NCBI GenBank assembly: GCA_964016885.1
Contig: OZ024751.1
Location: forward strand, 10,664,001 to 10,728,000
Source: Eledone cirrhosa
Taxonomy: Eukaryota
Direction of reading: 5' to 3'
DNA length: 64,000 bases
In this document: in pieces, positions 2,270 to 63,945 of the stretch
How the letters are laid out: each line of letters opens with the position of its first letter
How positions within the stretch are numbered: the first letter of the stretch is position 1
The notes under the pieces: model-generated
Told to the model about the DNA's origin: nothing
The model's database searches: none
What the model saw: the letters and a program-made list of their open reading frames with translations, nothing else
Translations under genes and position numbers: made by a program

Positions 2270-5137
2270 ACTTTGAATAACTTTGAAATGTTTTGGCCAG
2301 TATTGGCCCAGGCCATGTCTAACTTAATAGCACCACCTGGCGAAGTCTTTCAATTCAGGATTTGGGCACCATGGCCCATTCGAGAAGAGAATTACTGTTT
2401 GCGGAGACATATCCGGGTGTGGGTGGTTTGTCCGGGATTACTTGGAGGAATTTGTCCAAAGACTTCTTGAATTTTGTGTGGTCAGTTTCTGTTTTGACGT
2501 GTCCTGGTGTGATGTTGAAGAGAGCAGGGCCGATTGAGGTGAAATAATTGTGCCGTATTGTTGTTATGAGTTGCGATTTAGATTTTTGAATGGGACGGAT
2601 AGCACGGGGCCCAAGCCTTGGGTGTATCTTGAAGGCGATGCCAACATCATTTGGGCAGTGATGATGGAACATTTTCCACATCATGCAGATAATATAACGC
2701 TCACGGCGACGTTGGAGTGAGTAAAGTTTCAGGTTTTCCAATCGACCCCAGTAGTCAAGGTCTGACATGCCATCTATCTTTTTCGTGATTGCCCTTTGAG
2801 GAGCTTCAAGTTTCATGATACTTTGTTTCGTGTGGGGAGACCACAGTGGACAACAGTATTCAAGGTGTGGTCGGGCGAAAGTAGAGAAGAGAAGGATAAT
2901 GGTGCGGGAATCTCTCGACTGGAAGGTTCTGAGGATCCAGGAACACATTCTGCGGGCCATGTCAACTTTGCTGCTTATATGCGTGGTCCAGCTTATGTTG
3001 CTGTCCACGGTTACTCCCAAGTCTCTGATGTTGTTTGATGCCACGAGAGTTTCCCCGGAGGGAAGGGAGTACGGGAGTTTCAGAGCATCCTCTTTTCCAA
3101 AGTGGATCAGTTCGAATTTGTCTTCGTTCAGTAACATGTTGTTCTTTTCTGCCCATTGGGTAACAGCCAGTAGGTCTGACTGAAGGCTTATCCGGTCATC
3201 CACGCCATTGATGACCTTTTGGAGCTTGGAATCATCAGCGAAAATTTTAATGTTGCTGTGTTTGATGATGTCAGTGATGTCATTAATATAGATGATGAAG
3301 AGAAGTGGGCCCAACACAGTGCCTTGTGGGACTCCACTACTGACTTTGGCTGGGCTTGATTTGACTCCCTCAACTACAACATGTTGGGTTCTGTTTGACA
3401 GGAAGCTCTTGATCCACTGCAGCAGCTTTCCAGTGACACCAATATTGGACAGCTTTCTCAGTAGAATGTTATGATCAACCCTGTCAAAGGCCTTGCTGAA
3501 ATCAAGGTAGATAACATCAGTGTTGGAACCCTCTCCCAAGGCTCTCAAAATGTCATCAAAGTGATGCAGTAGTTGCGTCAGGCAATCCCTTCCATTACGG
3601 AATCCATGCTGGTTGGAGTTCAGCATATTGTTACTCTCAAGGAAGTGGGTCATTCGCGATCTCACCACTCGCTCAAATACCTTAATGATATGAGAGGTGA
3701 GTGAGATTGGACGGTAATTCACGGCAAGGGATTTGTTTCCCTTTTTGAAAACTGGGACAACAGACTGGGATAGAAGGTTTTCTGGCACATATCCAGCATC
3801 CAGTGAGTTCCGCCACAGATTGGCAAGAGGAGAAGCAAGTTGGTGTTGACACGCCTTCAAGACACAAGCAGGGAACCTATCGGGACCTACTGCTGAATTA
3901 TGCTTGATTTCCTTTATTGCCGCCAAGACATCAGGGGCGCCAAACGTTATGTCCGATAAGGTGTAATGGGGAGTAACATCGCCGATACAGCCCAGATCGG
4001 CCATATCAGGATTGCTGAAAACAGAGCAGTATTGTTTCTGCAGTATCTCACCCATGGTTTTAGCATTGTCTTGAAGAGTGCCATTTTCATCAATTAGAGG
4101 GCCAACAGTAGAGCCAGTGATTTTGTGTTTTTTTGCAAATGAAAAGAACACTTTGGGATTGAGTTTGATCTTCTCAATGGCCCAGGCCTCTTCAGCTCTT
4201 CTCTGATTGTTGATGAGGGACATTATGTTGTTTTGGAGGTTATGTTTTTTAATCTCTAGTGATGAAATGGCAGTCAAGTTGATGTGTTGCTGCTGACAGT
4301 ATTTCAGATTGTTGATTTTTTTGTTCGTTCTCTTAATTTTTCTGATGAGCGTTTTTCTATTTCTAGGGATTCTGCTCTTAGATTTGTTTATAGTTCTTAA
4401 TGGGGTGTGTTTAGCACATATGTTTGTAACAGTGTCCACAAATGTCTGCCAGGACTTTTTGATGTTAGTGGGTGTATGAGTGTGCGTGAAGGACCAGTCG
4501 ACATGTGCAAGATCATGACTGATCGCTTCCCAGTTTGCATTGTGGAAATCCATAGCGTCAAACGGATGGACAGGAGAAATGACATTGGGTTTGTATATTG
4601 GACGGTGGAATCTCAGATCACAGAGAACCATGTCATGATCAGAGAGTAGAGTTTTCTCCACTGCAATATTGTGGATATTGTCAGTGTGATTGCTGAAAAT
4701 TAAGTCTAGGACGTTTTTGTGGCACCTCGTTGGTTTGAGCACTAGTTGGGATAGGAAGAAATCATCCATGAAGTCAAGAAGCGATTCCACAGCTTCCCTG
4801 TCAGAGGTTGAGGCAGAAGAACCTGGTGGCAGGGTGTTTGTGGACCAGTCAACTCCGGGGAGGTTGAAGTCCCCCATCATTAAGATGTTGTCAGGGTGAC
4901 ACTCTTGGATGAAACACTTTATGCTGTTGAGGCATTCCTTGAAGCATGGTACAGGCGTTTGGGGTGGCCTATAGAGCCCAACTACTAATAGGTTGTTGGT
5001 TTGACTGAATACAGTGACTGCCTCACAGTATCCATTAGTGAATATGTTCATAGCCTCTGTTGAGAAAGAATTATGGACATAAATGGCAGTTCCGCCCTTT
5101 CTTCTGCCAGCGCGATCAGCACGGATGGCTTTGAAAT
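2270..5137 (-). mobile_element. CR1/Jockey-group (APE-RT) LINE, 5'-truncated, inserted in a (TA)n array
   Basis: Contains the 898-aa ORF. Upstream in-frame sequence [20 protein letters not shown] is an APE motif, and the element breaks off at about 5137. The 3' end has a short tandem tail (TTCAAAGTTA x2 on the - strand). (TA)n lies on both sides. Confidence 0.9.
2355..5051 (-). CDS. LINE ORF2: C-terminal part of AP endonuclease plus reverse transcriptase, no internal stops
   Basis: APE motifs GLYRPP, MGDFN, LDLIF, SDH. RT motifs [39 protein letters not shown]-terminus [12 protein letters not shown]. Confidence 0.93.
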
Positions 5138-5165
5138 TTTTTTTTTTTTTCCACTTATATATATG

Positions 5166-5198
<33 letters not shown>

Positions 5199-8693: not shown

Positions 8694-8879
8694 AGGTGAA
8701 TTGGCAGTATCGGTAGAGGGTCGGACGCCATGCTTTCCAGCATAGTTACGTCCCTTTACAATCTGAGTTCAAAAGCCGCCGAGGTTAACTTTGCCTTTCA
8801 TCCTTACGAGGTCGATAAAATAAAGTACCAGTAATGTACTGGGTAATTGCTGGCCTTGTGCCAAAAGTAGAAACAATTA
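8694..8879 (+). mobile_element. tRNA-derived SINE, family 1
   Basis: Box A TGGCAGTATCGG, box B GAGTTCAAA.C, core ttgcctttcatccttacggggtcgataaaataaagtaccag, tail gtagaaacaatt. Confidence 0.85.
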
Positions 8880-10515: not shown

Positions 10516-11106
10516 AGTTTTTATATTGTGTTTCTCCTTTGTACTGTCTTACACCATCTTGTTTTTGTGTGTTGTGTCATATATATATATATATATATAT
10601 ATATTAGGTAGGACTACTGGATTTCATATCCTGAATCAATGACTAACACAGACTGTATGGAACTATTGTATGAGTTGCACATGCTTGCTGATAAGTTTAA
10701 CAGCCCGGCTGCGTAAATGTCTGTATATATTACGTGATCTTCTGAACATTGAGGATCTATATCTGCATTTGTGAAGATATGTTTCACAGAAATGATATCG
10801 TCCAGGAGATGAGAATTTCACCTTTCTCTCTACCTAAACACCGCCACCGCAGCTGCTAAAACAAAATGTGTCACTCTGAACGGCTGATTGTAACTCCATT
10901 ACTGCAGTTCAGCAAATTCATTGAGTGAGCTAGACGCTGACCGGAGACCGTTGAAGTAATACCAGCGATCGATCTTGGTTAATTTTATATAGTGTATATA
11001 TATATAGGAGTCGATCGACTTTCGTCAAATCGGACCGAGGGAACAATGTTTCCGTTGGTCTTTCCAATTGCTAATACTATCTATCGGTCGCAACTCCAGG
11101 TAGAAG

Positions 11107-11352
<246 letters not shown>

Positions 11353-12296: not shown

Positions 12297-12488
12297 TGGC
12301 GGTGGATTGGCAGTATCGGTAGAGGGTCGGACGCCATGCTTTGACGCATAGAGTTACGGCCCTTGCCATTCTGAGTTCAAATCCCGCCGAGGTTAACTTT
12401 GCCTTTCATCCTTATGGGGTCGATAAAATAAAGTACCAGTAATACACTGGGTTATTGCTGGCCTTGTGCCAAAAGTAGAAACAATTAT
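12297..12488 (+). mobile_element. SINE family 1
   Basis: Same A/B boxes and core. Confidence 0.85.
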
Positions 12489-19821: not shown

Positions 19822-22124
19822 TCCTTGAATCTCAGTCATTGATGTTGGTTAACTGGAAAGTCCGTTGGATTGAATATCAAGCCACTACCTGCAGCCTCAG
19901 ATATTCAGGACGTATCGGAGGGTTCTTGCCGTTCCAAGCAAGCATGCCTTTTGAAGCGTTCCAAAAAGCGTGAAGGGGCCGATTTTCTTTAACCATCCCT
20001 GGAAACCTTTGGAGATAGTCCCCAGTGCGCCTATGACAATCGGGATCACTTTGACTTCATGGCAGTTCCAAATCCTTTTCACCTCCCACTTTAGGTCCTG
20101 GTATCGGTTAATTTTCTCCCTCTCCTTCTCTTGCACTCTCGTGTCGAACGGGCAGGCCACATCCACAATCAGGCACGATCTTTTTTCTTTGTCCACAACC
20201 ACCAGGTCAGGTCTATTGTGTTCCAGTTTTTTGTCCGTCTGTATCCTAAAATCCCACAGCACCTTCACCTGACTGTTCTCCATCACCGCCTCTGGCCTAT
20301 GCTCATACCATTTCTCAGAATGTGGTAGATTGTTTACTTTGCACAGGTGCCAGTGGATCACCCTGCCCATCACATCGTGTCTCCAGCCCTTATAGTGGGT
20401 CTGGGCTAGGTGTTTACACTCGGACACAATGTGAGCCACAGTCTCCTCTCTTTCTCCACAGATCCTGCACAGTGGGCTAGCCTCCTCCTTGTAGATATGG
20501 TGCTTCAACCACTTCGTTTTGAGGGCCTGCTCCTGCGCAGCCATTAGCATTCCTTCTGTAGCCTTTTTGAGGTCTCCTCTTCTCAACCAGTTCCATGTCT
20601 GTGGATCTCTAAATTCAGTTTTCTCAAAGAAGGGATTTTCCCTTAAGGCTGCTCTTCCTCCTTGATGTTATTTCCTCCTTGGGTATCCCCTGGCCTACTG
20701 TCCCCTCCTTCAGTACAGCTCTGAGCATTGGCTCCTTACTATAGGTCACGTATTTGTATAGGTTGTTTTTCTCCATCTGAACACAGTCCTCTATGCTGAT
20801 AAGACCTCTTCCACCCTCAGATCTCCTTAGGTAGAGTCTATCGACATCACTCCTCTTGTGGAACATGTTGTAGATAGTCAATAGCTTCCTAGTCTTCCTA
20901 TCCATTTCTTTTTGTTCAGCAACATTCCATCTCAGAATTCCCGCACTGTACCTAATAATAGACACAGCTCGGGAATTTACTGCGCTTATGGCATTTCTGC
21001 TGTTCAGATGTGACTTCAATACGCTCCTTACTCTCCGAATGTATTCAGTTCTTAACAATTCCTTCATTTTTTTGTTCTTTATGCCATCAGCCTCCAGAAC
21101 GCCCAAATACTTGTATCCTTCCTCAGAGTCAATTTCCTTTATCATCTCACCTGTTGGTATCTGGATCCCGTTACTTCTGCTCAACCTACCCCTCCTCATC
21201 ACAATGACTCCACATTTACCAATACCAAACTGCATACATATATCACTGCTGAAAATACGGACAGTGTCAACAAGCACATCCAACTCCTTCTCACTTTTCC
21301 CGAAGAGCTTAAGATCGTCCATGAAGAGGAGGTGATTGATGGTAAGCTCTCCCCTTCCCAACTTGTATCCTGCTCTCACTTTTCGCAGCATAATGGTCAA
21401 GGGCATCAGGGCAAGGACAAACAACAGAGGGGACAGGCTATCTCCCTGGAAGATACCTCTCTTGATCTTCACGCTTCCCAAGGATACTCCAGTTGATGTC
21501 AACTCTGTCTCCCAGGACCCCATACTCCTGCCCAGCAACTGTCTGATGTTATCTGCCACCCTGAAGATCTCCAGGCTTTTGGTGATCCAGGAATGAGGCA
21601 CCATGTCAAATGCCTTTCTGTAGTCTATCCATCCCATGGCAAGATCAGTGTGTCTCCTCCTGCAATTCCCCATTACCATCTTATCAATAAGCAACTGGTC
21701 CTTTGTACCACGTGACTTCTTTCGGCATCCTTTCTGTTCGTCCGGCAACAAGTTGTTTGTGTGGAGGTGATGGTAGATTTCCTCAGACACAATGCTCGTC
21801 AACAGTTTCCACATTACGAGCAGACATGTGATAGGTCTATAGTTGGTAACATCATTACCCTTGATTCGGTCTTTCATTATCAGAACTGTGGTACCTTTTG
21901 TCAACCACTCTGGCACCTCACCCGACACCAAGCAGTCATTGAACATGGCCGTCAGCTTCGGGTGGAGGGATGTTAAATGTTTAATCCAATACCCCTGCAC
22001 ACCATCTGGGCCTGGTGATTTCCAGTTGGTTAGTTTTTTGGCTTGCCCCTTAAGAGTTTCAACTGTGATACTCAAATCAGTCTGTTGCTGTGCCTGCTCA
22101 CCGATCTCCCTCTGTACTGTCTCA
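19822..22124 (-). mobile_element. R4/Dong-clade non-LTR retrotransposon (RT + CCHC + restriction-like endonuclease), 5'-truncated, in (TAA)n
   Basis: ORFs 20624-22075 (KSPGPDG, NYRPITCL, GIFQGDSLSP, HLLFMDDLK) and 19897-20586 (CRICGEREETVAHIVSEC, RPDLVVVDK..IVDVACPFD) joined by one frameshift. (ATT)n tracts on both sides. Confidence 0.9.
19897..22075 (-). pseudogene. R4/Dong RT-RLE polyprotein with a frameshift near 20600
   Basis: Two consecutive ORFs in different frames with continuous domain order RT, zinc knuckle, RLE. Confidence 0.88.
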
Positions 22125-22197
<73 letters not shown>

Positions 22198-22564
22198 TCT
22201 ACTTTCCTTACATCAAACTAAAATATGTTGACAATCTTTTAATAATGTCTTCCTTGTGAAATTTGTGGTCTTGTTTTGCTTAACTAATGAATATTTCCAG
22301 CTCTGCGCACCTAACTTCTGCATGAACCCAGCCAACTAGCTGCTTTCCACTGCATATTGCACATTGAGCACATGCCTTTACGCTTTGGCTTCTAACTAAT
22401 TCACCAATCTCTCCTCTCATATCTCCTCTCCTATCTCAATCTCTCTCTTTAAGATTGGTTACTCTTGAACTGTGTATATTATATATATATATACAAGTAT
22501 ATGTATATTATATATATACGTATATTATATATATATATATACACGTATATGTATATTATATATC

Positions 22565-30449: not shown

Positions 30450-30473
30450 TATATATATATTTGTATATATATA

Positions 30474-30650
30474 TAATTGTTTCTACTTTTGGCACAAGGC
30501 CAGCAATTACCCAGTGCATTACTGGTACTTTATTTTATCGACCCCGTTAGGATGAAAGGCAAAGTCAACCTCGGCGGGATTTGAACTCAGATCGTAAAGA
30601 GACGTAACTATGCTGGAAAGCATGGCGTCCGACCCTCTACCGATACTGCC
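30474..30650 (-). mobile_element. SINE family 1
   Basis: Reverse complement of the family 1 sequence. Confidence 0.85.
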
Positions 30651-30931
30651 AAATAATTTTTATATATATATGTATATATATTTGTATATATATATATTTG
30701 TGTATATATATATATTTGTATATATATATATAATAAAAAATATATATGTATATATGTATATATATATAAATATATATATTTGTATATATATATATAATTA
30801 TATATATAATGAAATATATATATGTATGTATGTATATATATATAATATATATATATATAATATATATATATATAATATATATATATATAATATATATATA
30901 TATAATATATATATATATATATAATATATAT

Positions 30932-31585: not shown

Positions 31586-31654
<69 letters not shown>

Positions 31655-32399
31655 ATATATAAGATCAAAAGATGGTTAAATGAGTTCCATGTATATTATT
31701 ATGCGCATTTCAAAAACAAATATCATTATTCAATAATATTTGTGTTTTCATCAGATAAAATAGGAAGACATGATATGAAGGTTAAAAATACTTGTAGATA
31801 GTGCAGTTTTAAATCAACATATGAAAAGTAGTTTTAGATTGATGTGTGATATTGTGGAAAATTTTTTTGAGGGGGGGGGGGGGGACGTTGGAAAGGATGA
31901 AAAAGAGGAGGAGATGAGAGTAAAAAGTGGAGGGGGAAGAGTATAATGAGGAAGGATTAGATAGGAGGAGAGATGGGTGATAGAGAAAGAGAGATAGCTT
32001 TTATAACTGAGAAAAATATATTGTTTTACATAGAGAGGTTGAAAAATCGTTGGAAGATAATGTATAAATTAAAAGAATTTGAAAATTAACTAAGAGAAAA
32101 ATAATGTAAAGTTAAGGTTTGTATATTGAAGGGTTTAATCATTATATATATATATATATATTAAAATATAAATATTAATAAAATAGATTTTCTTATCAAA
32201 AGAACATCTATTTTATTAATATTTATATTTTAATATTAATAACTCCGGAAAATTATTTTTTCGTAGAGAACTTCCAATCTACTGTAAAACTCATTCTTTG
32301 ACATAATCATTGAATATTGTTTAACACTTTAATATATATATATATATAAAATGAAATATATATATGTATATCTATATTTAAATGCATGTATGTATATAT

Positions 32400-32453
<54 letters not shown>

Positions 32454-32515
32454 TATGTACACGTACATACATATATGTATACCGACGTACGTTCAACAAT
32501 CTGGCAGGAAGGTAT

Positions 32516-32558
32516 ACGTTGCTGACGATAGCTAACAAGCTTGAAACTAGTACAGCGT
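32516..32558 (+). ncRNA. Minimal type I hammerhead ribozyme
   Basis: acgttg CTGACGA tagctaacaagctt GAAA cta GTA|cagcgt. Helix III is the palindrome ACTAGT. Confidence 0.8.
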
Positions 32559-32823
32559 TCCTTTGTCAGTGTTGAACAAACGAGCAACGGTGGCTGCTAG
32601 ACACTACGGCTTAATACGGGATGTTTGTTTACAAACACACCGAGCATTATAATAAATATTCGGTGAATCCATACGTGCATATATATATGTGTGCATGTAT
32701 GTATATATATATATATACATACTACTGTACGTCGGTATACATATATGTATGTACGTGTACATACTTATATTTAAGTAACAGCCGTGCTGGGAGTGGGAAA
32801 TGAAGTGTCGTTTCATTTTTTCC

Positions 32824-32889
<66 letters not shown>

Positions 32890-32934
32890 ATATTAAATAA
32901 TCTTCTTTGCTTTTTCTAGATTCTCTATTTTATT

Positions 32935-33261
32935 CTAGAGGCCTTTAAGGCACTCCTGGCCGACAAATTGGTTTATTTTGAATTTAATGTTTTGTATAAT
33001 AGAGATTACTTCATTTTGAAACTCGGCTAGTAGTTTGTGGCTAGGTGGATTCTTTTTAGATTTGAAGATAAGATGGAAGTTGTAACTGGATTTATTTATT
33101 TTGTCCTCCGATTTCTTTTTATCAAAATGGAAAGCACGCCATCTAAGTCTTCGTATAAAGGAGTCAGATTTCTCTATGAGTTGTTTTAGATATATTTTAT
33201 TTTTAGAGAAGAAGAAATGTTTAGAGAAGAAGAAACCGTAAAGAATTCCATTATTTTGCAA
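32935..33261 (-). pseudogene. Probable N-terminal region of a Penelope-like RT ORF
   Basis: YLKQLIEKSDSFIRRLRWRAFHF..FKSKKNPP..L.EF.N....I.NIKF resembles invertebrate PLE ORF N-termini (recalled pattern, not searched). It lies just downstream of an HHR-bearing pLTR on the same strand. Confidence 0.65.
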
Positions 33262-33299
33262 TCAGTTATAGTTTAAAGTGCTCAACATTAAAGGAGCTA

Positions 33300-33668
33300 T
33301 TTATAAGCAAAAGGGATATTCAATTTGTTGGTAATTCAAGAAATATAAATGTTTATAACTGATTCAGAGCACTCGACAGATTTTCTGGAGTATAATATTC
33401 AATGATATTAAATAAATGGAAACTATATTTATAAAACCATATTTATTTTATTATATATATTTCAAGGGTACCAAAACTGTGGTACGCTCTCATCAGATAA
33501 AATACAAAGGTTGTTTTATAAATTTTGACATAATCAAGAAAATTGGCATAACCAAGAAAATTGAATATCATTGAATACTATACCCCAGAAAACTTGTCGA
33601 GTGCTCTGAATCAGTTATAAACATTTATATTTGTTGAATTACCAACAATTTGAATATCCCTTTTGTTT
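33300..33668 (-). mobile_element. PLE pseudo-LTR with partial inverted copy
   Basis: 33300-33410 is the inverted complement of 33560-33668. HHR at 33444-33504. A further truncated copy lies at 60215-60420. Confidence 0.75.
33444..33504 (-). ncRNA. Type I hammerhead ribozyme
   Basis: tattttat CTGATGA gagcgtaccacagttttggtaccctt GAAA tatat ATA|ataaaata. Confidence 0.78.
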
Positions 33669-33681
33669 ATATATATATATC

Positions 33682-33947
33682 ACCTTGATCACCTTGACCG
33701 ACCAGTCTGTCGGGCGCCAATCGGCGCCGCTGGTCACAGCACGTCGTGCTGTTTTAGCATTAAGATAACGCCATCCCATTGGCTGGGCGGGCGGGCAGGC
33801 CGGTACTCATTTCTACAGCTGAGTAACTGGAGCAACGTGAAATAAAGTGTATTGCTCAAGGAAACAACACATCACCCGGTCCGAGAATTGAACTCACAAC
33901 CTTTCGATTCGAAGCCCAATGCTTTAACCACTAAGCCATGCGCCTTC
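33682..33947 (-). mobile_element. SINE family 2-related
   Basis: Same tRNA head and gagcaa.acactttatttcacgttgctccagtt core. Confidence 0.75.
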
Positions 33948-34189: not shown

Positions 34190-34378
34190 GGCAGTGGATT
34201 AGCAGTATCGGTAGAGGGTCGGACTCCATGCTTTGCAACATAGTTACGGCCCTTTACGGTCTGAGTTCAAATCCCGACGAGGTTAACTTTGCCTTTCATC
34301 CTTACGGGGTCGATAAAATAAAGTACCAGTAATGTACTGGGTAATTGCTGGCCTTGTGCCTAAAGTAGAAACAATTAT
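34190..34378 (+). mobile_element. SINE family 1 (3' fragments also at 35518-35592 and 19725-19790)
   Basis: Same sequence as other family 1 copies. Confidence 0.85.
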
Positions 34379-35462
34379 CCTCATTATATCTAAGACCAGT
34401 CATATTACAATACATTATCCTCATTATATCTAAGACCAGTCATATTACAATACATTATCCTCATTATATCTAAGACCAGTCATATTACAATACATTATCC
34501 TCATTATATTTAAGACCAGTCATATTACAATACATTATCCTCATTATATCTAAGACCAGTCATATTACAATACATTATCCTCATTATATTTAAGACCAGT
34601 CATATTACAATACATTATCCTCATTATTCTAAGACCAGTCATATTACAATACATTATCCTCATTATATCTAAGACCAGTCATATTACAATACATTATCCT
34701 CATTATATCTAAGACCAGTCATATTACAATACATTATCCTCATTATATCTAAGACCAGTCATATTACAATACATTATCCTCATTATATCTAAGACCAGTC
34801 ATATTACAATACATTATCCTCATTATATCTAAGACCAGTCATATTACAATACATTATCCTCATTATATCTAAGACCAGTCATATTACAATACATTATCCT
34901 CATTATATCTAAGACCAGTCATATTACAATACATTATCCTCATTATATCTAAGACCAGTCATATTACAATATATTATCCTCATTATATCTAAGACCAGTC
35001 ATATTACAATACATTATCCTCATTATATCTAAGACCAGTCATATTACAATACATTATCCTCATTATATTTAAGACCAGTCATATTACAATACATTATCCT
35101 CATTATATCTAAGACCAGTCATATTACAATTCATTATCCTCATTATATCTAAACCAGTCATATTACAATACATTATCCTCATTATATCTAAGACCAGTCA
35201 TATTACAATACATTATCCTCATTATATCTAAGACCAGTCATATTACAATACATTATCCTCATTATATCTAAGACCAGTCATATTACAATACATTATCCTC
35301 ATTATAATTAAGACCAGTCATATTACAATACATTATCCTCATTATATTTAAGACCAGTCATATTACAATACATTATCCTCATTATATCTAAGACCAGTCA
35401 TATTACAATATATTATCCTCATTATATCTAAGACCAGTCATATTACAATACATTATCCTCAT
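34374..35462. repeat. Minisatellite, 40-bp unit TTATCCTCATTATATCTAAGACCAGTCATATTACAATACA, about 27 copies
   Basis: Head-to-tail near-identical units with no spacers. Confidence 0.95.
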
Positions 35463-36478
35463 GTGAGGATTAAGAACAGCTATATCACACTATTATTCTC
35501 ATTATATCTAAGTTCAGTTACGGGGTCGATAAAATAAAGTACCAGTTATGTACTGGGTACTTGCTGGCCTTGTGCCAAAAGTAGAAACAGTTATATCTAA
35601 GTCCAGTTATATTACAATATATCATTCTCATTATAACTTAGTCCAGTTATTTCACAATATATTATTTTCATTATATTTTACTCCAGTAGGTAACAGTTAA
35701 TTCATTTCATTTTCAATCTCGAAAAACAAAATATTACGAAAAAAGAAAAAAATCATCAAAAACAAAAACAAAAACAAATAAAGAAAAAAAAATCAGAAAA
35801 AATAAAAACAAAGAAAAAAAATCACAAAAATCAAAAACAAGCAATAACAACAATAACAACCACTTAGAAATGTCTGGAAGATAAACGAATAATTTAGCTG
35901 TGTATGTATGTGTGTATGTGAGTGTGTGAGTGTTTATGTGTGTGAGTGTGCGTGTGTGTGCGTGTGTGTGCGTGTGGATGTTCGTCTGTGTGTGTGTCTC
36001 TGTCTGCGTCTGCATGTCGTCTGTGTGTGTGTGTGTGTGTGTCTCTCTGTCTCTGTCTGTGTGTGCATGTCGTCTGTGTGTGTGTGTGTGTGTGTATGTG
36101 TGCATGTCGTCTGTGTGTGTGTGTGTGTCTGTCTCTCTGTGTCTGTCTCTCTGGGTGTGTCTCTGTGTGTATGTGTGTGTGTATGTGTGTGTGTATGTGT
36201 GTGTCACTGTATTACTCTGTTTATCTCTGTAGAATTGTGTTTGTTTTATTTTTACAATTTCATTTATATAAATGAGGACGCCAGACTTTAGTTTGTTTAT
36301 ATTAGACGTGAGGCTGTCTGTCTGTCTGTCTCTCAAAGATAGTAGACGTCTTTCACATCGGCTCTTCGATTTTGAATCACTACTTGCGTGTATTATTTGA
36401 ATTTTGTCATTATTGTTGACTCCAACCCCTCGTCTGGGACTGTAGACGTAGAGTAAATATATTTTCGCCCCTTTTGGG

Positions 36479-38232: not shown

Positions 38233-38286
38233 GCAGCCCGGACCCCGGGACGCAGAGAGGTAAGTGCCTCTTTCTTTACCACCAAC

Positions 38287-41200
38287 ATGGCTGTGTTAAG
38301 AGTAGGTTGTCTAAATGCGCGTGGCCTGGGCTCACCTTGGAAGCAAGCTAAACTTCTAAATGACCTCAGGTCACGATGTATAAATGTGATGGTTATTTGC
38401 GAGGCCCGGATCAGCAGCGTGCGACAACTAGCCCCCACCTTTGATGACTTTGAGATGCACGCATCTCTCTGTCAGCCCGGAGGTGGGGGTGGGATTGTCG
38501 TTCTGATGCAAAAACATCTGGGTCTCGCTACACAAACGGTACACTTTGACCCGGAGGGTCGACTCGTGGTTCTGGACCTTGGCAGTGGTGAAGGCGAAGC
38601 CTTTAGGCTTGTCGCCGTTTACGCCCCCTTTGGGGCAATGTGGTCGGACTTCTTCCATCGTCTGGAGACTTTTCTAGGGACGTCCCGCTCCTTGCTTTTA
38701 GTGGGGGACTGGAATGGTATCCTAGATGCACGTTGGGACTATGTAGGGGCATGTCCCGATAGAGGGGGGGGGGTGTAACAGCCTCAAGGGGTTAATCGGC
38801 CGATTTGACCTGGCCGATAGATATCGACTAGATTTTCCGACTGTGCCAACCTGGACTTGGTCAAATAATAGCGGTCAATCTAGATTGTACCTAGATAGGT
38901 TCTTAGTTAGAATTAAGGATAGTGACTTTTTAAGTTGTCCAGAAATGCTCATGGTGGGCTATTCATACCACAAGTTAGTGACCTGCGTAGTCCACCTTGA
39001 TAGAACGCATAGGCAGGGACCCGGTTACTGGAAGCTCAACTTGTCCTTACCGGCAAGTAGAGCGTACAGGGACCGGATTAGAACCTTAGTTAAGGAGCGG
39101 TTGACGGGCGCCATCGTCAACAGCAGGTGGTGGGGCTCTCTAAAAAGAGAGATTAGAGTAGTTTCAATAGGAGTTAGTAAGGAGTTAGCCTCAGATAGAA
39201 ATATGAAGGAAAGGGAGTTGGTAGTTAATGTTGAAGAGGCAATGAGAAGCGGCAACGTGGCCAGAGTGCAAGCGTCGAGAACGGCCTTGAGCCAGTTCTT
39301 CGACGCGAAACACGAAGGCTGCGTTGTCCGAAGCAAAATACGTGGTCTGGGAAACGAGGGGACCAAAGCTGTTAGCTGGGCCCGCGTGACAGAATACAAA
39401 AGAGGGATTAGATCCATTATCCGGTCTTTGTGAGACCAGGATGGACGGGTGATCCTTGAACCTAAGCAAATGTGCGAGGCCTTTCAAAGGGACTTTGCCC
39501 GATTGTTCGTGAGGGGCGGGGGGCCGGTTGGAGATGTGGATTTCAGTCCATACCTCGACGGCCTACCGCGTCTTTCGGACAAAGAGGTGAGGTCCTGTGA
39601 CGGGCCGATCTCAGCTGCTGAAATAGGGGACGTGCTGAGCCTATGCGGCAAACGCAAATCTCCAGGGCTCGATGGTCTGCCCTACGAACTATATATTAAT
39701 ATGCCGGACTTGTTCCCCGATCTCCTCGAGGCGATCTACTGCAACTGGCAACAGAACGGGAGAATTCCCTGTTCTGTGAGGAAGGACGAGAACAAGGGGG
39801 ATGACATTAGTAATATTAGGCCCATAACTCTGCTAAATGCAGAGTTAAAGATTTTGGCCAAGGTGTTAGCGAAGAGGTTGGCGCTTGTCGTGGGGGGGGG
39901 CTGGTGGGAGATGCGCAGACATGCGCTATCTCGTCCAGGTCCATCTACGACAACCTCCACCTCATGCGATACATCAGAGAGAGGGTTGGGAACGAATCCG
40001 GCTTTGGTGGGGCCCTGATAAATTTAGATCAGTCTAAAGCGTTCGATGGTTACCTGGATGCGGTGCTAGCGGCGGCTGGGATCGGACCCGTTTTCAGGGG
40101 CTGGATCACTGCCATGCACAGCAGCCGCATCTGCTCTAGAGTCAAGGTGAACGGCTACCTCTCGGAGCCGTTCGAAATCACCTGCTCCATCCGACAGGGG
40201 TGCCCTCTCTCCTCCCTTCTGTATTTATTGGCTCTCGAGCCACTACTGCGGAAGTTGGAGTTGTTGCAGGGCATCCCTTTGGAACCGGGATTGCGCAAAG
40301 CGGTGTCGGCCTACGCCGATGACGTAACAGTAATGGTGTCGACCACCGCGGAAATCAAGGCAATCGGCACCTTACTGGAGGAGTACGAAAAGTTGACAGG
40401 GGCTAAGCTGAACCGGGACAAGTCAGTCGCTTTGCAACTCGGCGAGTAGAGGGGCAAACCGATGTCGTCCGGCGGTATCGTCGGACGGTGGACGGAGGGC
40501 CCGGTAAAGTTGCTTGGGGTCTGGTTCGGACCGGACCTCCAGGTGGAGAAAAACTGGGGTGAGGTGACAAATAGAGTGTTTGCACTGACCCGGAGTGCAA
40601 ACTATCCCTGAAAGGTCGGGCGGAGGTGGCGAACGCTTACATAGCGTCCGTCATCTATTACCGCTTGACTGTCGTGCCTTGCCCGGGTGAGATCCTCGCC
40701 AAAATGGAGCGCGCACTCTTTCACTTCCTTTGGAAGAAGGGGTCTCCCCTGGTGAGGAGATCCATCTGCTGTCAACACCCTTTGAAAGGAGGGCTGGGGA
40801 TACCGTGGCTAAAAATGCGTAAACACGCATTAAGGCTACGGCACCTCCAGGTATTCCTCACCGGTCAACCGGTGTGGGCCCCGTTTGTGACGCGAGCCTT
40901 CCAGATGCTCGTCTCGCTCACCGAGCTGCAGTCCTGGGTGAAGCAAAGACCGAGAAAACTGGGCGACTGGCACACCGAGTGTGCCCAGGCGCTCACGGCT
41001 CTCTGACAGGCGGACCCGGCTATCGGTGGAGACTCCACCTCGTCATTCTATAGAGGGCTGGTGGTTAGCAGGTGCGACGACGCCCTCGGAGAAACCCTAG
41101 GCATGGAGTAGGACGAACTGGTCAGCCTATTCGGTAGGACTTTCGGCCCGGGACCTATAGACAACTTCCAGAAGTCCTTAGCCTGGCAGTGCTACCGAGG

Positions 41201-57142: not shown

Positions 57143-57286
57143 TATGTATATGGCTTTCCACAAAATACATATAGTTAGCACCCCATACACTAAATTGGGA
57201 TTATACTAACGTATAACCTACTGTTTGTAGAGTGAGATGGTTACAAGTCGGTGTTTAGCTTAAAGCTTTCTCTGTTATTGTATTAA

Positions 57287-57406
<120 letters not shown>

Positions 57407-59475: not shown

Positions 59476-59876
59476 AAAAGTTATGACCCCGACAGCAGAG
59501 CTCAAGCCGTTTCCACGGCTATTTCAGGACTATATATATATAATAATAATAATAAGGGTTGAAGGACCCACCATATTTATCAATGCCAGTACCGGTTGTA
59601 TCTCAGCGCACTCCATGGGCAATGTAAGATACATTCCCAGAGTTTACACAAAGTTATTTGCTTCAACACAACACACGTAAAACGGGTGCCTATAAGGTTC
59701 CCGGACTCGAATTTCTGCCGCACTAATGCAGCAGTAAGGTGCACTGTACCATCTGTCTGCATATATTATGCAACAATGTACAATCGGCTTATGCGGCTTC
59801 ATCAGCGGGTATCGCCTAATCAATAACCAATCGATAGACAGAATCCTAAGGCCAGCCTATGCCGGCCATGACTGTT

Positions 59877-59913
<37 letters not shown>

Positions 59914-60185
59914 TTTCAAAAATATATGATCAACACTACTGTGTTTTTTTTGCAAAATGACAATTGCCATTTTACGTCTGTAAGTATAGATTTAATATTT
60001 AATATTCTCTAGATCGATACAGACGGACTATATGTACTTGAATTAAGGTATTACTATCTGGCTAAAAAATTATTGTTATTTTGCAAAAAAACACAGTAGT
60101 GTTGATCATATATTTTTTAAAATTATAATGTAATGCTCAGAAGTATTTTCTTAGAGCTTAATATTTGTAACTGACTACTAAACTG

Positions 60186-60218
<33 letters not shown>

Positions 60219-61857
60219 CAGAAGGGAAATTCAATTTGTTAGTAATTCAACAAATATTAATGTTTATAACTGATTCAGAGCACTCGACAGATTTTCTGGA
60301 GTATTCAATGATATTAAATAAATGGAAACTATATTTATAAAACCATATTTATTCTATTATATATATTTCAAGGGTGCCAAGTGTGTTTTATAAATTTTGA
60401 CATAACCAAGGAAAATACCTTAACGGTTCAAGTTATCCTTGGATAGTGAGGGGATAAGAGAAGAAAAGTCAGATATTTCAAATTGTTAAGATGAGTATGC
60501 AAATGAATATGCAAATGAGGTTGAGGTAAAGGGCTGAAAAAAATCTTAGAACAGAATTATTTTCTTCTTGCAGACACCGCCAAAATTCCACGTTCAGAAC
60601 TATTTTTAATTTATAATATTCCTATACACCTTCAAAATGATCCTATCTTCTTTAAAAATTTAAATGTAAATCTTTTAATTTTTTTAAATATTTTTAATAT
60701 TTTTAATATTTTTAATATTTCTATTTTTTTAATATCTCTAATATTTCTAATATTTTTACCTTTTCACATTATTTTTTTTCAATATATATATTTAATATTT
60801 TTAATTCTGACATTACTTTTATAATGACACCCCTCTAAATATATTTTTTTAGATGTAGATTGATAATCTTTAATTGACATTCTGAAAATTTGGTTGGGGA
60901 GGAATGGTGGGAGCGGTGGGGGCGGAGGTGTGGGTTGGGGTGTTGGTGGTGGTGGTTGCGGTGTTGCTGGTTGGTTGTGGAAGGAATGGTGGTGGTGCTA
61001 GTGGTTGTGGTGTTGGATGGGGGAAGAAGTGGTTGTGGTGGTGGTGTTGGTGGAGCTGTGGACAGTTTATTGGGTTGGGGGAGGCGGTGGTATTGATTAC
61101 TGTGGTGATGATGGTGGTCGTGTTGGTGTTGGTGTTCGTAGTGGTGTTGGTTCTGATGTAGTACGAGGTCCAGTGTTTTAAACCCCCAAACAGTCACATC
61201 AACCCCCTTATTATCGTCAGAGAGTACCCCTAGACGTTGTTTACCCTAAACATATGTGTGCTGTTACAGCTTATATATCTGTCTATATGATGGCTGCCCC
61301 CTCGTTATCGAGTATGGTCATTGCACGATATACCATTATTAATAATTATTAATTAATTCTATTGTGCAATGCCTGTGCGGGAAGATATTTTTTAAAGTGA
61401 GGAAAGACTGTGCACTGAGCCAATCCCACTCTCTGAGCGACAGTAGCTATAACCCGAAAAGAAGAAAAGATCAACATCATCGGTAACTACTGAGCCACAT
61501 GTTTTATATCAGAGTTATCCCAGTTTCCTGAGTTGCCTTCTCCTAGAGGAATGCCCTGACAAAGGCTAGAGGTCCTTCACTCCCAGTGGTTTAACCACGT
61601 GATCACATACATACACACAACAAACACACTTACACACACACAAATCATATTTACAGACATACACACATACACACACTTACATACATACAAACACGCACAG
61701 TACCTATGGGTATATATATTTGCATATCTATATTTATATCTACTTACATACATTCACATACTATATATATTTATATATATACTTACGCACATACACATAT
61801 AAACATATATCTATATACATTACACTTATATACGTAGTATATACATATATATATATG

Positions 61858-61891
<34 letters not shown>

Positions 61892-62077
61892 AATTTAATA
61901 CAATAACAGAGATAGCTTAACGCTAAACTCCGACTGGTAACCATCTCACTCAACAAACATTAGGTTATATGTTAGTATAACCCAATTTAAGTGTTTGGGG
62001 TGCTAACTATATGTATTTTGTGGAAAGCCAGTTGTATTATTTTATGAGATATAATTAAAGTTAAAATATATCTCTCT

Positions 62078-62202
62078 TTCCAAACAATTGTTTCATTATA
62101 AGTTTTCTACAAGTTGGGAGAATGTTTCCAGTTTATGTAGAAGCCTAACATTTATTCATGTAAGAATATATTCAGGTGGGCACTTATAAATCTTCAGTGG
62201 AA
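62078..62202 (-). ncRNA. Type I hammerhead with extended helix II (copy 1)
   Basis: ttcca CTGAAGA tttataagt..(about 80 nt)..acttataat GAAA caatt GTT|tggaa. Confidence 0.7.
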
Positions 62203-63068
62203 GCCCATTAAACTTTGATATAAGAAAAAATTCTTACCGCAGTTAAAAATCGTGTCTGCTAAGCTGCTCCCTCACGCATCGAATGACCGCCAAATTTGAA
62301 ATACCAGCAGTCTTTTGACTGAGGAAGTTTAATAGCGTCACGAAGCGGGAAGGGGAGACAAGCACAATACACGAGAAAAGAAAAAAATAATATACACTCG
62401 GGTTAATTAGTTTTTTCAAAAACATTATCAATCCAACGTGTTAAGAACTCAATTGAAATTAAAAAAAATAAATGTATGCGTGTATTAATTACACACGCAT
62501 ATAGATATTTTCTTAGGCTAAAAACAGAAGTGATACCAGAATAACGAACCGCATCACATCACCGCAGCAAATACGAAAGGTTACGCTTTAAATGCAATTG
62601 GGAATGTAAATCTCTGGTCAAATTAAGAGTAAAATATTTAACACACGCGGGTTAATTAGTTATTTAAAACTATTATCAATTCCACGTGTTAAGAACTCAA
62701 TTAATTAAAAAAAATAAATGTATGCATGTAATTATTTACACACGCATATATATATTTTCTTAGGCTAAAAACAGAGAAGTGACAACCAAAAAACCTCCAT
62801 ATCTCACAACAGTAACAAATACGGAAAGTCACTTTTATAAGGTAGTTGGAAATAAATACCTCTGGCCAAATCAAGAGTAACATATTTAATACAATAACAG
62901 AGATAGCTTAACGCTAAACTCCGACTGGTAACCATCTCACTCAACAAACATTACGTTATATGTTAGTATAACCCAATTTAAGTGTTTGGGGTGCTAACTA
63001 TATGTATTTTGTGGAAAGCCAGTTGTATTATTTTATGAGATATAATTAAAGTTAAAATATATCTCTCT

Positions 63069-63193
63069 TTCCAAACAATTGTTTCATTATAAGTTTTCTA
63101 CAAGCTGGGAGAATGTTTCCAGTTTATGTAGAAACCTAACATATATTCATGTAAGAATATATTTAGGTGGGCACTTATAAATCTTCAGTGGAA
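63069..63193 (-). ncRNA. Type I hammerhead with extended helix II (copy 2)
   Basis: Near-identical to 62078-62202, offset 991 nt. Confidence 0.7.
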
Positions 63194-63945
63194 GCCCATT
63201 AAACTTTGATATAAGAAAAAATTCTTACCGCAGTTAAAAATCGTGTCTGCTAAGCTGCTCCCTCACGCATCGGATGCTTAGTAAAATCGAATCTTTGGCG
63301 GTGTGCAAGCAAATTCGACCTACTATATGAATGAGTTAGCAAAGCACTCGATAAGGTAGGTCCTTAGATTAATAACATACGTTTAAATAGCTTGACAAAT
63401 TGAACATTGTGGTAGGCAAAATCTAACACACAATACCAAAGTAACGAAAGAACTAACAGGTTGAGAAAAAATAGACCTGGACAAAGCAAATGTTATACGT
63501 TTAAAGTGTTTCTATGAATCCGAAATCAAATATCAGACTTACGTAACTGGCAAGCTCGTGGTATTCATGATCGAACAGAGGATTCAATTCATCAACAGGT
63601 TTTCGTTCTACCAAAGAACGGGGCGAGATGCTAAATGTTGCTGCTCGCAGCAGCGAATCGTATATTTAGTTGTCACGTGTTATTTCCAGAAAGGGAAATA
63701 ACCCCCGGTTTTTGGCGGGTCATTCAAAATGTTAGACAAAGGAAATATAATTTCCGCTAACTTTCAGAATAAGTTCTCGACCAGATGTTATTAAACAAAC
63801 ACAAATAATTAACCAATCAACAGAATTGTCTAATTAAATTAATTAGTTAATTATTATTATGTATATATATATATATATGTATATATACATAAACACATAC
63901 ACATATACTGTATATACACATACACATATATATATATGTATATGT

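Follow-up and report, generated by a model that had tools for sequence, protein, structure and literature searches.

A high-copy, non-coding repeat of Eledone cirrhosa with a predicted expanded type I hammerhead ribozyme: a likely Penelope-dependent relative of animal retrozymes

In a window of 64,000 nucleotides from Eledone cirrhosa (contig OZ024751.1, positions 10,664,001 to 10,728,000; all coordinates below are those of the window), we describe a non-coding repeat element of 1.4 kb that has many copies in the genome and whose near-identical ends each carry a predicted hammerhead ribozyme on the minus strand. As a probably non-autonomous element that depends on Penelope, it is comparable to the animal non-LTR retrozymes, with the addition of an expanded hammerhead. 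The more unusual point is this expanded hammerhead, rather than the possible circular RNA.

The two end repeats, R1 and R2, measure 393 nt each, differ at six positions (98.5% identity) and are offset by exactly 991 nt, with a 598-bp middle between them (Table 1). A (TA)n/(GA)n tract adjoins position 61892, directly beyond the 3' end of the element. The first-pass annotation had described direct repeats with a minus-strand hammerhead in each, a (TA)n boundary and a non-coding middle containing a diverged duplication of ~250 bp, and our analysis agrees with this description. The duplication pairs 62378-62645 with 62625-62893 at 79% identity (modules A and A'), and no coding capacity was found. 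In the circularised 991-mer, the longest ATG frame has 60 codons and the longest stop-to-stop frame 68, and the read-through frames of 61893-63842 gave no Pfam family at E<=1 in six of six frames. The decayed PLE reading frame that the annotation had named as a possible alternative identity for the middle was not detected by Pfam in any of the six frames. Each A module also contains a strong AT-rich hairpin (62461-62515 and 62707-62762), which drew weak chance matches to miRNA models; these hairpins are possibly promoter or protein-binding modules.

Table 1. Coordinates of the element, its predicted ribozymes and neighbouring repeats in the window
Feature	Positions	Strand	Remarks
R2, 5' copy of the 393-nt repeat	62884..63276	-	truncated second unit, pseudo-LTR; blastn and offset comparison
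R1, 3' copy of the 393-nt repeat	61893..62285	-	stops at the fixed 3' terminus of the family; blastn and offset comparison
Middle module A'	62625..62883	-	~250 bp; starts at the R2 3' boundary
Middle module A	62378..62633	-	~250 bp; 79% to A'
Unique middle segment X	62286..62377	-	R-linked in other family copies as well; a divergent X1 contig joins 63276 to 62313
(GA)n/(TA)n microsatellite	61859..61892	.	likely insertion target at the 3' end; sequence; similar tract at other copies
Predicted monomer	62083..63073	-	991 nt, cut site to cut site; 32% G+C
Predicted type I hammerhead 2 (in R2)	63069..63198	-	cut after 63074
Predicted type I hammerhead 1 (in R1)	62078..62207	-	register of hammerhead 2 shifted by -991; cut after 62083
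Hammerhead 2 stem I	63189-63193 with 63069-63073	-	5 bp
Hammerhead 2 core C3-A9	63182-63188	-	
Hammerhead 2 stem II	63173-63180 with 63087-63094	-	8 bp after U.U, opens into two hairpins
Hammerhead 2 G12	63085	-	
Hammerhead 2 stem III	63075-63082	-	palindromic
Hammerhead 2 possible extra helix	63194-63198 with 63168-63172	-	
Third family copy, 5'-truncated	57151..57301	+	covers the final 151 nt of R at 91% identity and runs into (TA)n; lacks ribozyme sequence
Flanking repeat family B, separate element	63272..63830	.	~63272 end adjoins (TA)n in other copies; 298 X8 reads
~185-bp repeat copies	8695-8879, 12301-12487, 30472-30652, 34194-34377, 42899-43050, 52677-52861		

Public sequencing data place this copy within a large family. 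Four of the ten runs listed (X1, X5, X7 and X8, the last consisting of RAD reads) were compared with 62286-63830 at 80% likeness, and matches were obtained for 3,322 of 17,142,217 contigs in X1 and for 5,736 of 12,467,656 reads in X8. The family is high-copy, without an exact number, as summed contig depth is read here as a sign of abundance only and not as a copy number. These thousands of contigs and reads also dispose of a single-copy local duplication, which the annotation itself had raised and which we regard as scarcely credible. Neither X5, whose 49 contigs agree with X1 in their majority alleles, nor X7, with only six partial matches, was counted as cross-species support. Most family reads are 90-95% like the present copy, whereas R1 and R2 differ by only 1.5% (6 of 393 positions); therefore, the insertion appears relatively young within its family, as the annotation had proposed.

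The copies have a common 3' end and a variable 5' side. At 62882, element sequence gives way to (TA)n in ten X1 contigs and one X5 contig, and the third copy in the window likewise ends in (TA)n. Five X1 contigs continue beyond 63276 into segment X. X1 depth drops toward the 5' side, from about 200,000 at 63014-63117 to 12,000 at 63222-63273. Since other copies run on past 63276, R2 is a truncated second unit and 63276 its truncation point, and R1 and R2 are pseudo-LTRs of a 5'-truncated partial tandem (a 1.4-mer) rather than LTRs. The head-to-tail junction between R and A' is suggested to recur in other copies by a row at 62881, where reads of the A/A' junction may also map. Joints that skip 247 bases (X5) or step backwards by 232 (X8) may reflect differences between copies in how many A modules they hold, and cross-mapping between A and A' could produce the same joints. 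Pile-ups of X8 read ends were found at 62487, 62624, 62975, 63047, 63077 and 63401, one of them beside a predicted cut site; all lie on AATT sites, and they were therefore attributed to the restriction cuts of the RAD library and rejected as not biological.

A different reading would take the paired repeats for genuine LTRs, and the element for an LTR retrozyme or one of TRIM type, given that repeats of 393 bp around a middle of ~600 bp have the sizes of plant LTR retrozymes (PMC6765202). This is hardly tenable. Inspection by eye of both orientations of the element revealed no PBS, PPT or TG..CA ends, the hammerhead is of type I and not type III, and the 5' boundary is not common to other copies. 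No 4-bp target-site duplication is evident at the flanks, which consist of (TA)n and another repeat.

The predicted hammerhead has the same order of parts in both repeats. Along the minus strand, a 5-bp stem I is followed by CUGAAGA, a 96-nt segment, GAAA, stem III, GUU and the stem I partner strand. The boxes CUGANGA, GAAA and UH follow the type I order, helices I, II and III are all represented, and every invariant letter is present; the key residues C3, G12 and H17 (U) are located at 63188, 63085 and 63074 in R2 and at 62197, 62094 and 62083 in R1. In both hammerheads, stem III comprises 2 bp with an AAUU loop and lies within a palindrome. Stem II is where the structure departs from the usual form: spanning 96 nt, it begins with a U.U mismatch, continues as an 8-bp helix and then opens into two hairpins, and the G10.1-C11.1 closing pair is replaced by the U.U. 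The intact core reported by the annotation stands with respect to the invariant letters, but the hammerhead is not canonical at the base of stem II, whose 96-nt extent had been missed. The cut-site positions bear out the annotated 991-nt monomer (62083-63073) and its junction GUU/UGGAA (the slash marks the cut). Because this junction is identical to genomic sequence within each repeat, junction reads alone cannot prove a circle.

Rfam at its gathering score returned no hammerhead in the whole 64-kb window, and at E<=10 over 61700-63500 it gave 18 matches, none of them to a ribozyme. This miss is expected given the 96-nt stem II, though the cause is not proven. A type I descriptor, written after the motif had been seen, was applied at three stringencies. 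Over the 64-kb window its strict form hit only the two sites in R1 and R2, and its relaxed form three, including a compact hammerhead at 32522. Dinucleotide shuffles yielded no hit (0 of 20,000 for R and 0 of 10,000 for the 991-nt unit), while CUGANGA alone occurred in 155 of 2,000 shuffles, as a check of the shuffler. The relaxed scan gave no match in the middle of the element or in the flanking repeat family B. A pattern scan of metagenomes (stem I and core boxes with an 85-110 nt spacer) returned six loci, which were rejected as chance because none of the six had the core-closing helix or blastn similarity to the element, and the viral contigs searched gave no matches.

The compact type I hammerhead (32506-32566, plus strand; C3 at 32522, GUA cut at 32552) is an observation in its own right. 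It has a U.U followed by a 4-bp stem II, a palindromic stem III and an interrupted stem I, and it sits in an island of ~190 nt flanked by TA-rich microsatellite tracts. It lacks similarity to R, has no second copy in the window and was missed by Rfam at the gathering score.

The letters of the hammerhead may be retained across the family. Among the 40 of 416 family differences listed, seven are in R, and none of the 40 affects the 11 invariant core positions or the 28 stem positions. One of them is N7, which is U in 80,889 of 90,690 of the X1 depth and in 575 of 731 X8 reads, giving CUGAUGA; another is the bulged insert base at 63140. With few rows of differences listed, this pattern is suggestive of conservation of the hammerhead core across copies. 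R1 and R2 also have alleles in common that differ from the family majority, such as A7.

Four of the six R1/R2 differences fall within the 96-nt insert (62095-62190 versus 63086-63181; binomial P about 0.035). All four R2 letters are Watson-Crick paired, whereas the R1 letters break three of these pairs and convert one to G.U, and two of the four R2 letters are private with respect to the family majority. These differences possibly arose by hairpin-templated mutation.

In folding predictions, the R2 insert reaches -27.7 kcal/mol (z = -6.4, with 0 of 200 shuffles equally stable) and the R1 insert has a z of -4.1. For R2, the plus-strand insert is predicted to be similarly stable (z -6.4), so that the strand is set by the core and not by folding. 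Large insertions in hammerhead loops have precedent in the discontinuous mouse Clec2 ribozyme and in engineered aptazymes. The U.U at the base of stem II likewise occurs in the compact hammerhead at 32522, and together with a 2-bp, tetraloop-closed helix III it is found in the active axolotl HHR_Amex2 (PMC7229834). In PLE hammerheads, G10.1-C11.1 is highly conserved, and those of metazoan PLEs have a helix II of 7-8 bp, a helix I of 4-5 bp and a palindromic helix III (PMC4209133).

One could also suppose that most of the insert is a small spliceosomal intron, running from a GT at 63174 to an AG at 63099-63098, whose splicing would leave a compact hammerhead and make cleavage splicing-dependent. 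The GT and a pyrimidine-rich AG are suitably placed, PLEs have pLTR introns, and in Drosophila virilis the end of a Penelope intron alters the ribozyme (PMC4209133). We nevertheless judge this very unlikely, as the sequence around the donor GT departs widely from the splice-site consensus and an intron would have no need of the two strong hairpins predicted for the insert (z -6.4).

The five bases just 5' of stem I can pair with a complementary five-base stretch of the stem II junction (-7.5 kcal/mol), and this 5-bp helix is a possible tertiary clamp in our model. A helix linking stems I and II is a known kind of tertiary contact (PMC10085705). In 200,000 trials with random flanks, a match to the stem II junction arose in 0.24% and a match anywhere in the insert in 31%, the test having been chosen post hoc; the same pairing of flank and junction is also part of an inactive predicted fold. 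In its fullest form, this view has stem II as a three-way junction of ~100 nt that a Watson-Crick pseudoknot holds against stem I, in an active ribozyme invisible to Rfam that yields an animal circular RNA of ~1 kb, a combination that we hold to be rather improbable.

The predicted folds of longer transcripts favour a pair of hammerheads over single ones. In 191-nt windows, the pairing probability of stem I is 0.0. In the 1,384-nt precursor, where tertiary contacts are not counted, the active dimer fold lies 10.6 kcal/mol and two active monomers 16.6 kcal/mol above the MFE, so that the dimeric fold is predicted to beat two monomers by 6 kcal/mol. The unconstrained MFE of this precursor contains both 8-bp stem II helices and a stem III duplex between the copies. 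Dimeric PLE hammerheads have reportedly been described by Lunse et al. For retrozyme dimers of Xenopus, one of nine cleaved in vitro and eight did not (bioRxiv 10.64898/2026.07.22.740005).

We considered whether the hammerhead might be a dead relic or a mere protein-binding structure, carried by a SINE-like passenger of PLEs or LINEs for which ribozyme chemistry is irrelevant. Both copies retain every invariant letter and all three helices, and the sole core difference listed is at the free N7. Moreover, no joint among those listed skips the insert, and the family seems to have been amplified with the long form. On the other side stand the non-canonical base of stem II, the large insert, the competing folds and the Rfam miss. 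The depth gradient and the third copy also suggest that truncation close to the ribozyme, or on its 3' side, is frequent among copies. Taken together, we find a relic doubtful.

The reading that we consider probable, if only just, is that copying is driven by a PLE and that the ribozyme is real but a circle is not obligatory. A tandem copy would be transcribed into an RNA longer than one unit. A PLE protein would nick (TA)n and begin reverse transcription within the RNA at a constant position, 190 nt downstream of the predicted cut, where the fixed 3' end of the family lies. It would then cross the cut site, proceed for 1.4 units and stop at 63276 over short microhomology, leaving the pair of pseudo-LTRs. 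The two hammerheads would associate through the palindromes of their stems III, and cleavage would take place in this dimeric form, probably at a low rate or assisted by protein. A 991-nt circle could arise, although the architecture does not need one. As the copies end 190 nt past the cut site and this copy crosses it, the RNA that was copied had probably either escaped cleavage or been religated. Templating 1.4 units across the cut site is beyond a cleaved linear monomer unless a jump occurs, but either a tandem transcript left uncleaved or a circle formed by religation could do so.

Several features of this scheme are known from PLEs. PLEs form partial tandems, are truncated on the 5' side and target (TA)n (PMC8557442), and the anole Poseidon PLE, the one PLE tested in vitro, has an internal start of reverse transcription downstream of its hammerhead and uses unprocessed RNA as the main substrate; its cleavage requires protein, no RNA-seq ends fall at the cut site and insertion does not need cleavage (PMC11167929). 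Candidate PLE partners exist in octopods, since 30 recently active Penelope families are described for Octopus vulgaris (PMC13282606).

A true circular-RNA retrozyme, with efficient cleavage and an accumulating 991-nt circle that is reverse-transcribed 1.4 times round, would produce the same anatomy: copying that sets out 190 nt beyond the cut site, passes over that site and extends through 1.4 units is what a circle yields. A circle-template model was put forward earlier for PLEs (PMC4209133). The common non-majority alleles of R1 and R2 (e.g. A7) are consistent with one template, animal non-LTR retrozymes accumulate circles in coral, mussel and axolotl (PMC7229834), and retrozyme families reach lengths of 972 bp (bioRxiv 10.64898/2026.07.22.740005). 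However, an uncleaved tandem transcript explains the anatomy as well, the circles tested measure only 170-400 nt (PMC7229834), the active fold is disfavoured in prediction, and the anole PLE lacks RNA-seq ends at its cut site and shows that cleavage can be unneeded (PMC11167929). We view an abundant 991-nt circle as the template as on balance unlikely.

On its 5' side the element abuts the separate, high-copy repeat family B, to which R2 is joined across a few common bases. The depth of family B drops away from its (TA)n end, and the region 63272-63830 showed no similarity to R, no hammerhead and no Pfam match. The present copy was probably inserted at the junction of family B and its TA tract. 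A PLE tail of 30-40 bp, which is optional in PLEs, was seen neither in the main copy nor in the third copy. No PLE protein was found in the stretches of the window scanned, and the read-through frames of 31600-33900 and 59480-61600 gave no Pfam match in 12 frames.

The window contains other mobile sequences. LINE reverse transcriptase/endonuclease ORFs are located at 2355-5198 (minus), 19897-22198 (minus) and 38233-40449 (plus); the first is an open frame of 946 aa whose top identity, among the 107 matches listed, is 57% to a protein of Argonauta hians. A SINE-like dispersed repeat of ~185 bp has six copies with 89-95% identity. A tRNA-like match at 33881-33938 (minus), with similar stretches at 11106-11222 and 48271-48377, is probably the head of a tRNA-derived SINE, and a tandem array with a period of ~80 bp occupies 34374-35687.

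The class of element is already known, and a 2026 preprint argues that animal retrozymes are non-autonomous PLE derivatives. What the present family adds, at high copy, is a natural hammerhead, predicted to be of type I, whose branched stem II spans 96 nt. Word searches of the open-access literature returned no octopus hammerhead element, no mention of this family and no natural stem II of this size, which does not prove absence; the supplements of the preprint or the repeat library of Octopus vulgaris may already contain the family. PLE surveys would also miss such a hammerhead, because their limits on the core spacer are 7-17 nt and, for half cores, 35-50 nt (PMC8557442). If a class of active expanded hammerheads exists, surveys of animal hammerheads would have undercounted it, descriptors limited to short core spacers being blind to it, and PLE clades regarded as 'HHR-less', such as the (TA)n-targeting half-core Naiads, would carry cryptic expanded ribozymes. 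The geometry of the element, with its 3' end 190 nt past the cut and 1.4 units in length, makes the role of PLE hammerheads testable as a choice between a circular and an uncleaved template, and the R1/R2 alleles provide a locus-specific marker for a religated junction.

Known systems share different portions of this architecture. Plant LTR retrozymes (PMC6765202, PMC7229834) resemble it in overall sizes and in having two ribozymes around a non-coding unit, but they possess a type III hammerhead, PBS, PPT, true LTRs and a 4-bp TSD, none of which is evident here. The Naiad PLEs flagged HHR_half_core (PMC8557442), including Naiad_Ovul of Octopus, are alike in their (TA)n target and in the unusual distance between the core halves; in them the halves lie 35-50 nt apart, in contrast to the 96 nt joined by a closed stem II here. 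Two Octopus Naiads have a (TA)n preference, one of which carries the half-core flag. The 12-nt stem III palindrome had no match in the supplement of that survey, and the 3' end of Naiad_Obim was dissimilar by eye.

Among PLEs with pLTR hammerheads (PMC4209133; PAc of Anolis, PMC11167929), the long helix II, short helix I and palindromic helix III are similar to ours, and PLEs including the non-autonomous MRC1 (PMC8557442) likewise have partial tandem pseudo-LTRs, 5' truncation and a microsatellite target, with a fixed 3' end downstream of the cut site. The present element shows a partial tandem pseudo-LTR, a fixed 3' end, 5' truncation and a (TA)n target, in keeping with a non-autonomous PLE. 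It differs from PLEs in having no ORF, no G10.1-C11.1 and no tail seen. The cut site and the 3' end are separated by 190 nt, as against about 85-92 nt in PAc (PMC11167929), and MRC1-type elements of Chlamys are mostly without hammerheads (PMC8557442).

The element also resembles the metazoan non-LTR retrozymes (PMC7229834; bioRxiv 10.64898/2026.07.22.740005), which are non-coding, low in G+C and carry one type I hammerhead per unit, arranged head to tail without PBS or PPT, and which have been proposed to be non-autonomous PLE derivatives. Li, Clavereau and Pollet (2026) report consensus sequences of up to 972 bp with pLTR homology (bioRxiv 10.64898/2026.07.22.740005), and HHR_Amex2 has the same U.U stem II base and 2-bp helix III (PMC7229834). 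The differences are a unit of 991 nt, longer than the tested circles and the largest consensus, a dispersed 1.4-mer at (TA)n instead of a full tandem array, and a branched stem II of 96 nt. The retrozyme label of the first-pass annotation does not extend to the plant LTR type, given the type I hammerhead and the lack of PBS and PPT. With two complete motifs 991 nt apart, 32% G+C, no ORF, multiple copies and a partial second unit, the label is reasonable in the animal, non-LTR sense.
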